From positions 1 to 31,009 of the forward strand of contig CAZAIZ010000001.1 of the NCBI GenBank assembly GCA_964485275.1: DNA of 31,009 bases. The letters are read 5' to 3'. The notes beneath the pieces were generated by a model. It was not told where the DNA came from. It searched no databases and saw nothing but the letters and a program-made list of their open reading frames with translations. Shown piece after piece: positions 14,109 through 25,842 of this stretch. The first letter of the stretch is position 1. Each line of letters begins with the position of its first letter. The position numbers and the translations under genes were made by a program. Source of the DNA: an uncultured Pedosphaera sp. GTDB taxonomy: Bacteria > Verrucomicrobiota > Verrucomicrobiia > Limisphaerales > UBA1100.

Positions 14109-17100
14109 ATGAATAGCACAGATTCAGCCCGCGAGTTACTAGGGTTAGAGCGCGTCAACCTTGTGGATTATGTCCAGGTTTCGGTTGCCTCCCCTGATAC
14201 CGTTCGCCAATGGTCCAAGGGTGAGGTTAAAAACCCTGAGACAATCAATTACCGTACATTCAAGCCTGAGAAAGGCGGGCTTTTTTGTGAACGTATTTTC
14301 GGTCCGGTAAAGGATTGGGAGTGTTCTTGCGGCAAATACAAGCGGATTAAATATAAGGGAGTGGTTTGTGACCGGTGTGGTGTTGAGGTGACATTGGCCC
14401 GGGTGCGACGCGAGCGGATGGGTCACATTGAATTGGCCGTGCCTTGTAGTCACATTTGGTTCTTTAAGTGTATGCCCTCACGTTTGGGATTGATGCTGGA
14501 TATGACCGGGCGTCATCTTGAGAGGGTTATATACTACGAGGATCATCTGGTGATTGACCCGGGTGACACGCCGCTGGAAAGAAATCAATTACTCACTGAA
14601 GCGGAGTTACGCGAAGCCATAGAGACCTATGGTCCTAATGACACCAAGGAGGAAGGTGGTGCATTTGTTGCTAAAATTGGCGCTGAGGCGGTCCATGAGG
14701 CCTTGTCTAATATAGATCTGGATCAAGGTATTGACGAGCTGCATGAGGCGATGACCAAAACTCGCAGCAAGCAAATTCGCAAGAAGCTCGCCAAGCGCAT
14801 CAAGCTTTTTCAGGGTTTTAAGGAATCGGAGAAGCGTCCTGAGTGGATGATTCTCAGTGTTTTGCCGGTGATCCCGCCGGACTTGCGCCCTCTTGTGCCT
14901 TTGGAAGGCGGGCGTTTTGCGACCTCGGACTTGAATGATCTCTATCGTCGGGTAATTAACCGTAACAACCGGTTGAAGAACCTCATGCAGCTGAAGACTC
15001 CTGAGGTGATTATTCGGAATGAGAAAAGAATGCTGCAGGAGGCGGTGGATGCGTTGTTTGACAACGGGCGCCATGGTCGTGCGGTCACCGGTGCGGGTAA
15101 TCGCGCGCTTAAGTCGCTTTCGGACATGCTCAAGGGTAAGGGCGGACGTTTTCGCCAGAATCTCTTGGGTAAACGTGTTGATTATTCGGGTCGATCGGTG
15201 ATCGTTATCGGTCCAGAGTTGAAGCTGAATCAGTGTGGTCTGCCCAAAAAGATGGCGCTGGTACTCTTCGAACCATTTATTATTCGCCGACTTAAGGAGT
15301 TGGGCTATGTACATACTGTACGGTCGGCCAAGAAGCTGATTGAACGCCAAACACCGGAGGTATGGGATGTATTGGAAGAGGTAACCAAGGGGCATCCGGT
15401 TATGCTTAACCGGGCTCCAACGCTGCACCGACTGTCTGTCCAGGCTTTTGAGCCGGTCCTCATCGAGGGTTCTGCCATTCGGGTGCACCCTTTGGTGTGC
15501 ACCGCCTATAACGCTGACTTTGATGGCGATCAAATGGCGGTTCATGTACCACTATCAGTGGAGGCGCAAATGGAAGCGCGCCTTTTGATGTTGGCGCCTA
15601 ATAACATCTTCAGCCCTTCAAGTGGTAAGCCCATCATGACACCGACTCAGGATATTACTCTGGGATGTTATTATCTCACGGTGGAACCACGTGATTTGCC
15701 TGGCAAAAAGGGCAAAAAGAAAGATCGAATTCCCATGTTTGCATCGGCAGATGAGGTTTTCTTTGCGTTAGAAGAAGGAGATATAGATCATCATTCGCGC
15801 ATCCATTTGGCGAATCCGGATCGTGGTTGCGAAACATTTTATGGTGATGCCGAGTTAGCGGTGATCACTACAACCGCGGGTCGCGTGGTCTTCAGCGAAA
15901 TTTGGCCTGAGGAACTGGGCTTCCCAAATTTTGCAGTGGCAAAAGGCAAGCTGGGTGAACTCATCGGAAACTCGTATAAATTTGCCGGCCAGAAGAAAAC
16001 GGTTGTGGCATTGGATAAGCTCAAGGAATTGGGCTTTAAGGAGGCCACTATGGCAGGTGTCTCAATTGGGATTGATGACATGATCATTCCGGCTGAAAAG
16101 AATCAGGAAATCAAATCAGCCCAAAAGGAAATAGAGGACGTTGAAAAGCAATACCGTAAGGGCGTGATTACACCTGGTGAACGCTATAACAAGATCATTG
16201 ATATATGGACCCACGCCACAGACAAGATTTCCAACGTGATGCTGGAGACGTTGGAGACCAACCAGGGTAAAGATGAATATAACCCAGTTGCTCTCATGGT
16301 GGATTCGGGTGCAAGGGGTAATCGACAGCAGGTGAGGCAGTTGGCTGGTGTCCGAGGATTGATGGCCAAGCCGAGTGGAGACATTATTGAGAAGCCCATT
16401 CTCTCCAATTTCCGCGAAGGGCTCACGGTGTTGGAATACTTTATTTCCACTCATGGAGCTCGCAAAGGGTTGGCGGATACTGCGCTGAAAACAGCTGACT
16501 CTGGTTATATGACCCGCAAGCTTGTCGATGTAGCACAGGACGTGATCATTCAAGAGACGGATTGCCAAACTACAAATGGGGTTTGGCTTGAGGCCATTTA
16601 TGAAGGAGAAGAAGAGGTGGTTCATTTGGCAGATCGCTTGGTTGGGCGTCACTCCTGTGAGGATGTGGTTAACCCCTTTAATCCCGATGAATTTTTTGTG
16701 CGTTCAGGCGAAGAAATTGATGAGCATAAGGCTGAAGCGATTGAGGATGCGAATATTGAAAAAGTAAAAGTTCGCTCTGTGCTCACCTGTGAAGTGCGTC
16801 ATGGTGTATGTGCTCATTGTTACGGTCGAAATCTTGCGACCGGTTTGACTGCAGAGCATGGGCAGGCTGTCGGTATTATTGCTGCACAATCGATCGGGGA
16901 ACCGGGCACGCAATTAACGATGCGTACTTTTCATATCGGAGGGACAGCTTCCTCAGTCTTTAAACAGCCTGAGATTAAAGCCAAGGAGAGTGGTATTGTG
17001 GTCTACCAAGGTCTACGGATTGTGGATCTGGAGGATGGTAGTCATATTGTGCTCAACAAAAATGGTCGTGTTAGTGTGCGTGACGCAGAAAAGAATACTG

Positions 17101-18296
17101 AGATTGATGATTATGATGTGCCGATTGGTGCCGTAATCTCAGTTGCCGACGGTGAGAAGGTGAAAAAAGGTCAGACCTTCGTTCAATGGGATCCTTACAA
17201 TGTCCCTATTTTGTCCGAGAAAGGTGGGGTGATTGTGTTCCATGATATCATTGAAGGAGTGACCATGGATCATGACGTGGATCCAGCTACCGGTCAGGAA
17301 TCGATGGTGATTATTGAACACAAGGAGGACTTGCATCCACAAGTAATAGTGGAGGAGAACGGCCATGCCGTGGCAAACTATCCAATTCCCGCTGGAGCCC
17401 ATGTGACACGTGAAGAAGGTGACGTGATTGCTCCTGGAACGCTTTTGGCGAAGACCCCACGTAAGACTTCTAAGACCAAGGATATCACTGGAGGTTTGCC
17501 GCGAGTATCAGAGCTCTTTGAGGCGCGCCAGCCCAAGGATGCGGCGGAGATCGCCAAGATTGACGGCATGGTTGACTTTGGGCCGATTGTACGCGGAAAA
17601 CGTTCACTGATCCTTACCAATCAGGAAACTGGAGAGGAAGAAGAGCATCTTGTGGCCATTGGTAAACACTGCATCGTGTTTAAGGGTGATGTTGTCAAAA
17701 AAGGTCAACAATTGACTGAAGGACCGATTCTGCCTCATGACATACTGGACATTTTGGGTGTACATGAGTTGCAGGCGTTTCTGGTTAGTGAGGTGCAGGA
17801 AGTGTATAGGCTGCAGGGTGTGACGATTAACGACAAGCACATCGAAATGATCGTGCGCCAAATGCTTCGCAAAGTTCGGATTACTGAGGCAGGGGACACG
17901 ACGTTCCTCTGGGGCGAGCAGATTGACAAGGTTACTTTTGAGATAGAGAACGAGCGAGTGGAGGAAATGGGAGGGCAGCCAGCTGAGGCTTCACCAGTGC
18001 TACTGGGAATCACCAAGGCGTCTGTGGAAACAGAGAGCTTTCTCTCGGCAGCCTCATTTCAGGATACCACACGGGTTCTTACCGAAGCGGCGACGCTTGG
18101 CAAAAAGGACATCCTGCACGGCTTTAAAGAGAATGTGATTATGGGTCACATTATTCCTGCTGGCACCGGTTTTGATGGTCACCGCAAGTTGAATTTGAAT
18201 CCGCTGTCAGATCCAATTGAGATGGAGGAAGAAGACAACTTGCTCCTAGCTCCGTCGGAACCAGCCATTGATGAGCCAAATCCGCTGGTAGGGTAG
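14109..18296 (+). CDS. rpoC: RNA polymerase beta' subunit
   Basis: N-terminal Zn finger, catalytic [27 protein letters not shown]. Confidence 0.99.
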
Positions 18297-24393: not shown

Positions 24394-24672
24394 ATGGCAC
24401 GTTCAATAAAAAAGGGTTTCTACACCGATGCTAAACTTCAGGGCAAGGTGATGAAGGCCAAGGAGAGTGGCTCCTCCAAGCCGATCAAGACCTGGTCTCG
24501 AAGAAGTACTATTATGCCTGAATTCGTCGGACTTACGTTTAACGTGCACAATGGGAGAGCATTTTTGCCCGTGTATGTGAGTGAAAACATGGTAGGGCAC
24601 AAGCTCGGTGAGTTTTCTCCAACCCGACAGTTTAAAGGCCACAGTGCTCATGTGAAACGAGAAGTTAAGTAG
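24394..24672 (+). CDS. rpsS: 30S ribosomal protein S19
   Basis: [24 protein letters not shown]. Confidence 0.99.
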
Positions 24673-24673
24673 T

Positions 24674-25159
24674 ATGAAGATTACCTCCACAAGCCGCAAT
24701 GTACGGATGTCGCCGAAAAAGGTTCGCGAGGTCACGCGCCAAATATCGGGCTTGCCGGTGGCACGGGCAAAAGCGGTGCTGGCCAATATTCCCAGAAAGT
24801 CTGCACAGCTCGTTTCTCAGACCCTGAATACAGCTATTGCAGATGCAGAGCACATCAGTGCCAATTGGAATGAGGCAGACGTACAGAATCGTGTGGCTGA
24901 AATTAAGGAAAAGATAAATAACAAAACCACCGACAAGGGTACATTGGCGCGCAAGTATCGTCATTTGAAAGCAGAGCTTGTGCGTTTGGAGGAATATCTG
25001 GATTCGGAGAATAAATTGGCTGCAGACACTCTTGTCATCAAGGAAGCCATGACCGGAGCAGGGACCCCACTGCGTCGTTGGCGTACTCGGGCCCGAGGTG
25101 GTGGCACACCTATTATCAAGCGGACTAGCCATATTCGAATCACACTTTCTGATGAGTAA
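24674..25159 (+). CDS. rplV: 50S ribosomal protein L22 with ~51-aa internal insertion
   Basis: RMSPKKVR at the N-terminus, RARG...IIKRTSHI at the C-terminus; position rpsS-rplV-rpsC; 161 aa versus ~110 typical. Confidence 0.95.
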
Positions 25160-25164
25160 ACAAA

Positions 25165-25842
25165 ATGGGAAATAAATCTAATCCAATCGGGCTCCGTCTG
25201 GCAGTGAATAAGGACTGGGCTTCTAAATGGTACTCAGACAAGAAAGGCTTTGCTTGTTTTCTTGCTGAAGACCGGGCGATTCGTGAGCTGTTAAAAAGCA
25301 AACTTTCTGGTGCAGCCGTGACCAAGATTCTGATTGAACGTGCTACCCAGCGAGTGCGTATAAAGATTCTAACGGCTCGTCCGGGTGTTGTGATTGGTCG
25401 ACGTGGAGCTGAGATCGATAAAATTAAGGAGCAACTCGCCCGCATGACCGGCAAAGAGGTTTATGTGGATATACAAGAGATTCGTAAGCCGGAAATTGAT
25501 GCCCAACTAGTTGCTGAGAATGTGGCCCAACAACTCGAACGACGTATAGCCTTTCGTCGCGCCATGAAGCGGTCGGTTCAAATGGCCATGGATTTTGGGG
25601 CCGAAGGAATTCGAATTCGGTGTGCCGGTCGGCTTGGTGGCTCGGAAATTGCGCGAACCGAACAGTATCTAGAAGGAAGGGTGCCTCTTCATACATTACG
25701 GGCAAATATTGATTATGGCTTCACCGAAGCCAAAACCAAGGCCGGTATACTCGGTATTAAGTGTTGGGTTTGTACAGGTGAGGATAAACCTTCCAACAGG
25801 GCAGAAGAAGTGATTGAGACAGGTGCAGTAGAGAGCAAGTAA
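25165..25842 (+). CDS. rpsC: 30S ribosomal protein S3
   Basis: [35 protein letters not shown]. Confidence 0.99.

Follow-up and report, generated by a model that had tools for sequence, protein, structure and literature searches.

The ribosomal protein uL22 encoded in the verrucomicrobial DNA analysed here (31,009 nucleotides, hereafter the window) contains a genuine in-frame helical hairpin insertion that is specific to a clade within the order Limisphaerales (= Pedosphaerales). The inserted sequence resembles a hairpin in RpoC, the beta-prime subunit of RNA polymerase, and we estimate a probability of roughly 55% that it was copied from rpoC and now acts as a surface RNA-binding strut on the 50S subunit.

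The gene, rplV (24674..25159, + strand; 161 aa in the open reading frame list), lies in the S10 operon between rpsS (S19, 24394-24672) and rpsC (S3, 25165-25842), as part of a plus-strand cluster that runs tuf / rplKAJL / rpoBC / rpsLG-fusA / S10-spc. A single base separates the S19 and L22 genes in the window, and the two are likewise adjacent in every locus where both were mapped by coordinates. The product matches Pfam PF00237 at 94.6 bits (cut-off 28) in two separate stretches and PDB uL22 chains at E 7e-15, and its NCBIfam TIGR01044 score of 72.3 falls just below the cut-off of 73.65 because the insert splits the match. When aligned by phmmer with PDB chains of ordinary uL22 (110 aa), query residues 5-60 correspond to chain residues 7-62 and query residues 115-160 to chain residues 66-111, leaving ~51 extra residues where solved uL22 structures have 3. 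Alignments with relatives that have an 11-residue linker, together with the split Pfam and PDB matches, delimit the inserted block as H60-K114 (24851..25015, + strand), which stands in place of four linker residues of the insert-free proteins for a net gain of 51 aa. Both termini align with ordinary uL22, so that the extra residues are internal (60-114). A first-pass annotation made from the letters of the DNA had claimed a ~51-aa in-frame insert at 24854-25006; this interval is I61-S111, inside the block, and the annotation was also correct in every residue number it gave for the heptad positions (V70, V74, I77, I81; L91, Y95, L98, L102, L105, L109) and in the linker NNKTTDKG, which occupies residues 82-89.

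The G+C content of the block is slightly reduced (0.42-0.45 vs ~0.52), as expected of a Lys/Glu/Asn-rich helix. The window sequence shows no direct repeats flanking the insert and no mobile-element signs, only short repeats of chance size, and Pfam and NCBIfam scans place no intein or transposase family on uL22, bearing out the earlier statement that repeats, mobile elements and inteins are absent. There is practically no chance that the insert is an assembly or annotation artefact: more than 30 genomes, each assembled independently, have it, as do ~80 clusters of metagenomic proteins drawn from several sources, always in frame, and this recurrence in dozens of independent assemblies also disposes of the misassembly that the first-pass annotation had named as a threat to its claim.

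AlphaFold2 (AF2) models uL22 with a mean pLDDT of 89.5 from a 40-sequence alignment and confidently predicts the insert to be an antiparallel helical hairpin between helix 3 and strand 2. Helix 3 extends to residue 64 and is followed by a break at W65-N66 (W65, 24866..24868, + strand, located from the alignment of inserts and the AF2 secondary structure), helix A at residues 67-84 (24872..24925, + strand; pLDDT ~89-94), a loop at residues 85-92 (24926..24949, + strand; AF2 and alignments) and helix B at residues 93-110 (24950..25003, + strand; AF2, hhalign and the HMMER alignment to E. coli beta-prime). Beyond the hairpin come the usual strands (121-129, 133-138, 144-149 and 152-159) and the tunnel hairpin, and the core fold, including the long exit-tunnel beta-hairpin, superposes on solved uL22 structures in Foldseek with TM scores by target of 0.85-0.93. 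The helical hairpin read from the heptad spacing is thus recovered as a confidently predicted helix-loop-helix, with no prediction of disorder.

In the structure collections searched, uL22 proteins with a counterpart of the hairpin were confined to the clade. Foldseek searches of the PDB returned uL22 cores only, with query-normalised TM scores of at most 0.64, which means that no solved uL22 has the element; this agrees with the earlier statement that bacterial L22 is ~110 aa long and that known extensions are mostly terminal. Among 2.3 million AlphaFold DB fold clusters, one representative, a marine metagenome protein that is 72% identical, covers all 161 residues (TM 0.97), and every other match covers the core only. 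The ESM Atlas holds one cluster (53 members, Verrucomicrobiota) with the same shape over 161 residues (TM 0.94). Outside the clade, solved or AlphaFold DB-cluster uL22 proteins reach TM scores by query of at most 0.65 and leave the insert uncovered. Literature searches found no published account of a uL22 insertion in Verrucomicrobia or the PVC group, and the insert is new as far as these literature and structure searches reach.

We built a profile from 14 inserts and used it to search 400 genomes of the phylum, translated in six frames. Besides L22 it matched one thing only, an ungapped 52-residue stretch of RpoC, and it did so in eight genomes of four families, at the same stretch each time, in open reading frames of ~1400 aa and with E ~1e-6 per genome. 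Aligned by hhalign, insert and RpoC hairpin give a probability of 97% (P 7e-11), and after removal of all L22 core residues the probability is 96.7% (P 4e-10) with a score of 45, compared with a mean of 9.1 and a maximum of 16.5-17.8 for heptad-preserving shuffles. With a less tightly trimmed insert alignment, the real target scored 55.1 and the reversed target 12.6. A profile search of the PDB placed beta-prime in all of the top 30 positions (E 0.003, E. coli residues 182-233). E. coli beta-prime scores 21 bits there, and the next families, Csf2 and GroEL, score 14-18 bits. TIGR02386, the NCBIfam rpoC model, matches the insert within uL22 of two genomes (G363, E 6.6e-4; G034, E 0.084); Pfam RNA_pol_Rpb1_1 gives no match on insert-bearing uL22.

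The reverse search points the same way. An HMM of 13 RpoC hairpins was run against 27,628 six-frame open reading frames of the window's genome plus 91 uL22 proteins; it ranked RpoC first, then nine uL22 proteins with the 46-aa type of insert (35.6 to 14.7 bits), and then the best background open reading frame at 12.0 bits, and it matched no insert-free uL22 among the 91. The AF2 model of the RpoC fragment comprises a helix, a three-residue break, a helix, a three-residue loop and a helix, a layout as in uL22. The 50 inserted residues of the 46-aa form align one-to-one with E. coli beta-prime 184-233, with 28-38% identity by hand count from the alignments, and the alignment of inserts with RpoC is ungapped save for a five-residue loop extension in f1, the window's family. 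In helix B, the basic stretch R93 K94. R96 H97. K99 aligns with the KKLTKR region of RpoC and is Arg/Lys-rich in the 46-aa forms as well. We initially entertained the possibility that the matched region was the sigma- and NusG-binding clamp helices, which we take to be E. coli beta-prime 260-309, but the PDB numbering (182-233, a hairpin preceding the lid) rules this out, and the idea of sigma/NusG mimicry was dropped since the two elements differ.

The window encodes its own complete rpoC (14109..18296, + strand; 1395 aa from the open reading frame list and its translation), which belongs to the same cluster as rplV and lies 6.4 kb upstream of it, with the corresponding hairpin at A192-R243 (14682..14837, + strand; equivalent to E. 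coli beta-prime 182-233 by profile searches, hhalign and AF2). Because this hairpin is intact, the insert would represent an extra copy and not a relocation, and every insert-bearing genome that was checked likewise has an intact rpoC. In the search of the window's own genome, the RpoC hairpin reaches 8.4 bits (E 4.8), and the profile of the 51-aa inserts of the window's family gives an hhalign probability of ~37% (P 3.5e-4, score 21.5) against RpoC. The window's 51-aa form is therefore not significantly RpoC-like on its own, and the link runs through its homology with the 46-aa forms of sister families, to which its profile aligns at 98.2% (hhalign, P 5e-14). A further caveat is that, with the 46-aa profile, RpoC hairpins from the window's order score lower (15-25 bits) than the eight matches from other classes (31-37 bits), though these eight were picked as the best of 400.

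Taken on sequence and predicted fold, homology of the insert with the RpoC hairpin is probable. We regard as possible, if rather unlikely, that the hairpin instead has a de novo origin, for example through gradual growth of the loop from the 18-residue linker of neighbouring families, an intermediate allele that exists in at least 10 families, and that its likeness to RpoC reflects convergence of basic hairpins of similar length: short helical hairpins can converge, generic ones such as that of GroEL reach the bit scores given above, and the window's own form stands at background against RpoC. Convergence has to contend, however, with an alignment that stays ungapped over 50-52 residues with equal break, loop and helix lengths, with scores far above those of the heptad-preserving shuffles, with RpoC as the sole non-L22 match in 400 genomes and the top PDB family, and with a curated rpoC model that matches the insert and a reverse search that separates inserts from all background open reading frames.

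In E. coli numbering, the matched RpoC hairpin is placed between the clamp toe (beta-prime 142-180, PMC13198411) and the lid. An rpoC deletion of residues 215-220, which removes KKLTKR, changes both the kinetics and the stability of transcription complexes and reduces the activity of rRNA promoters (PMC3420936, PMC2936116). These residues fall inside the matched hairpin, and KKLTKR opens its second helix. The uL22 insert shares with beta-prime 182-233 its length, its layout, an ungapped alignment and a basic stretch at the opening of the second helix. It differs in sitting in a 161-aa ribosomal protein and not in the polymerase clamp, in having an invariant Trp where RpoC has none, and, in the window, in a loop that is five residues longer and a sequence that has diverged past direct detection.

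We searched for the insert among L22 orthologues, as the first-pass annotation had proposed, and found it conserved through the genus, patchy in the order and restricted to the clade; that annotation had noticed neither the patchiness nor the likeness to RpoC. The order was sampled with 401 Limisphaerales genomes, of which 380 gave an L22 match (a count that includes G318, an unpublished genome without the insert that supports none of the claims made here), and the insert is present in 32 of the 380. All 15 sampled genomes of the window's genus and a second genus of the same family have it, and three other genera of that family do not. Carriers comprise these two genera of f1, all matched genomes of families f2, f27 and f82, and single genomes of f11, f15, f51 and f76. 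In the remainder of Verrucomicrobiota, sampled with 398 genomes, a profile of the insert detected no L22 that carries it, and when the window's insert was searched against 1.84 billion cluster representatives, uL22 of this clade and one 2178-aa protein were the only matches. The latter is matched in eight stretches and is presumably spurious. A database protein, P0067 (254 aa), follows uL22 to just past the insert and then continues into unrelated sequence; it probably derives from a chimeric or frameshifted contig.

Inserts fall into two net length classes, 46 aa in most families and 51 aa in the window's family, the latter with five extra loop residues. Across all clades, W65, at the break between helix 3 and helix A, is the sole invariant residue inside the insert, and also kept are the hydrophobic heptad positions and, in the second helix, the basic stretch at its start and a closing Tyr/Phe-Leu-x-Ser motif. 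Comparisons within the genus put dN/dS at 0.19 in the insert and at 0.07-0.09 in the core halves on either side, rough values with dS near saturation. That the insert evolves faster than the core, and that it has repeatedly been lost or shortened, would fit a tolerated, essentially neutral passenger, a reading we consider very doubtful given a dN/dS of 0.19, a reading frame that is intact in every copy seen, and the retention of the invariant Trp, the heptads and the basic stretch in families whose inserts share only 23-38% identity.

The history of the insert within the order was traced on a FastTree phylogeny of 91 taxa, built from the flanking proteins L2, S19, S3 and L16 and rooted on five genomes of other orders. 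Linker states are interspersed on this tree (45 taxa without the insert, 16 with an 18- or 19-residue form and 30 with the full insert), and a full-insert genome is sister to an 18-residue-form genome three times. Parsimony requires at least seven changes between the full insert and the rest and 16 among the three states on the flank tree; on the tree of the uL22 core the numbers are 7 and 14, compared with ~38 for shuffled labels. Linkers of 11, 18, 19, 57 and 62 residues occur among the relatives. A search for recent lateral transfer of the insert allele could show no transferred tract: core identity tracks the flanking genes and not the insert state, and sliding-window comparison of three close pairs with and without the insert shows flat nucleotide identity of ~80-85%, with a dip only at the indel and ~100 nt after it. 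Between clades the inserts are 23-60% identical, about as divergent as the flanks, which argues for old, mostly vertical inheritance.

The 18-residue linker (E-D-L-K-x-H-K-x-E-Y ...) is near-identical in at least nine families, where it occurs among 11-residue and full-insert forms (loci L029, L030, L040, L041, L044, L045, L182, L186-L188, L194, L196, L215 and L216); f30 has a distinct 19-residue form. The ends of the 18-residue form resemble those of the full insert, and from its sequence it may be a deletion remnant that has spread or a product of short-patch exchange. Separately, genome G363 (contig C64, locus L034) carries the full insert while the same-genus genomes G401 and G155 lack it, and it groups with f82 and f27 in a small flank tree; it may be mis-binned or mis-classified.

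We compared five full and three partial 23S rRNA sequences and then the 3' region in 23 sequences (loci include L072, L161-L163, L168, L169 and L172). In the available sequences no indel tracks the insert, a negative co-variation result that is weak evidence given how partial the rRNA data are. Genera g1, g3, g4 and g5 of the window's family lack helix 98, as does G178; it is present in g2 and in most other families and is unusually long in G105. Its loss is independent of the insert, and it is present in the insert-bearing families f2 and f82.

From these observations we infer the following course of events. Early in the Limisphaerales, one member would have acquired in its rplV a copy of a 50-codon piece of rpoC, equivalent to E. 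coli residues 184-233, in place of four linker residues. By alignment, the 46-aa form is an insert-free linker with four residues swapped for 50, and in our reading of the alignments the Ala-Glu that ends uL22 helix 3 appears to coincide with the Ala-Glu that starts the RpoC segment, so that the dipeptide would be common to both at the left junction. Purifying selection would since have preserved the copy in some lineages, others would have shortened or lost it, and in the window's family the loop of the copy would have grown by five residues.

On the ribosome, the hairpin would project from the solvent-side corner of uL22 near the C-terminus, opposite the tunnel hairpin. In the AF2 model the insertion point adjoins the C-terminus by sheet topology, and the tails of other lineages lie at this corner; a solvent-side arm, and hence a plausible surface exposure, is suggested by this position, by the modules that other lineages add there and by the varied linkers that relatives tolerate. 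The basic face of the hairpin would bind RNA, most simply 23S rRNA, as an extra strut on the 50S surface. This role is proposed because the basic stretch is kept where the polymerase needs KKLTKR for stable nucleic-acid complexes; taken with the presumed descent from RpoC, the conservation of this stretch makes nucleic acid a likelier target than a membrane or translocon.

Alternatively, the arm might serve at the tunnel exit as a docking site, whether for the membrane or for a protein such as the translocon, SRP, trigger factor, YidC or a factor peculiar to the lineage; membrane, translocon and lineage-specific factor had been suggested by the first-pass annotation, alongside rRNA. uL22 is among the exit-region proteins, and the hairpin is amphipathic with a conserved Trp. 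We nonetheless find such docking unlikely: the best conserved of its surface features is a run of basic residues like the one with which RNA polymerase holds nucleic acid, and the insert state flips between close relatives, with at least seven changes and without replacement of the L22 core, which is hard to reconcile with a co-evolved essential partner. A quite improbable further reading is that the hairpin keeps the grip on nucleic acid that it has in the polymerase clamp but applies it to mRNA or the nascent transcript, nucleoid DNA or the rRNA of a neighbouring ribosome, or that it binds a factor that normally recognises this face of beta-prime; if true, the display of part of the polymerase on the 50S subunit would give translation a physical connection to transcription or to the packing of ribosomes.

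Several other lineages have added sequence to uL22. The C-terminal tails of mycobacterial and Mycoplasma uL22, chloroplast uL22c and the uL22 proteins with SAP or helix-hairpin-helix modules are likewise lineage-specific, and several are basic or nucleic-acid-binding; these tails and fusions are terminal, whereas the insert in the window is internal, between helix 3 and strand 2. The SAP and helix-hairpin-helix modules would provide precedent for nucleic-acid-binding additions at this corner. In the ESM Atlas, among uL22 clusters of ~245-250 aa, an Actinomycetota-labelled one carries SAP in 98% of members and a Verrucomicrobiota-labelled one carries HHH_5 in 16% of members; we assume that both additions are C-terminal. 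A second, independent insertion of ~10 residues, rich in Lys/Arg (LPRK..KG.K), lies in the loop between uL22 helices 1 and 2 in some insert-bearing lineages (L016-L018 of genus g5, L014 of G010, and the proteins P0063, P0068, P0070 and P0073). The window does not have it; its site would correspond to residue 24/25 (~24743-24748).

A parallel to the proposed function comes from plastids. In chloroplast ribosomes, a helix of uL13c replaces 23S helix 98 and is positioned by uL22c and bL21c, with uL22c-specific parts helping to place this helix, which contacts rRNA ends (PMC5694952). There a protein helix near uL22 serves as an RNA-contacting strut on the 50S surface, as we propose for the insert. 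The plastid helix compensates an rRNA loss, whereas no compensated rRNA loss was found for the insert.

Lineage-specific extensions of ribosomal proteins are common; to our knowledge, their origins are almost never traceable. What is new here is the internal position in uL22, the traceable polymerase origin that the likeness to RpoC suggests, and the rapid turnover among relatives. [quoted passage not shown] The alternating linker forms (11, 18 and 57/62 residues) constitute a natural experiment on the role of the arm, and they supply a simple lineage marker in an abundant, uncultured marine group.
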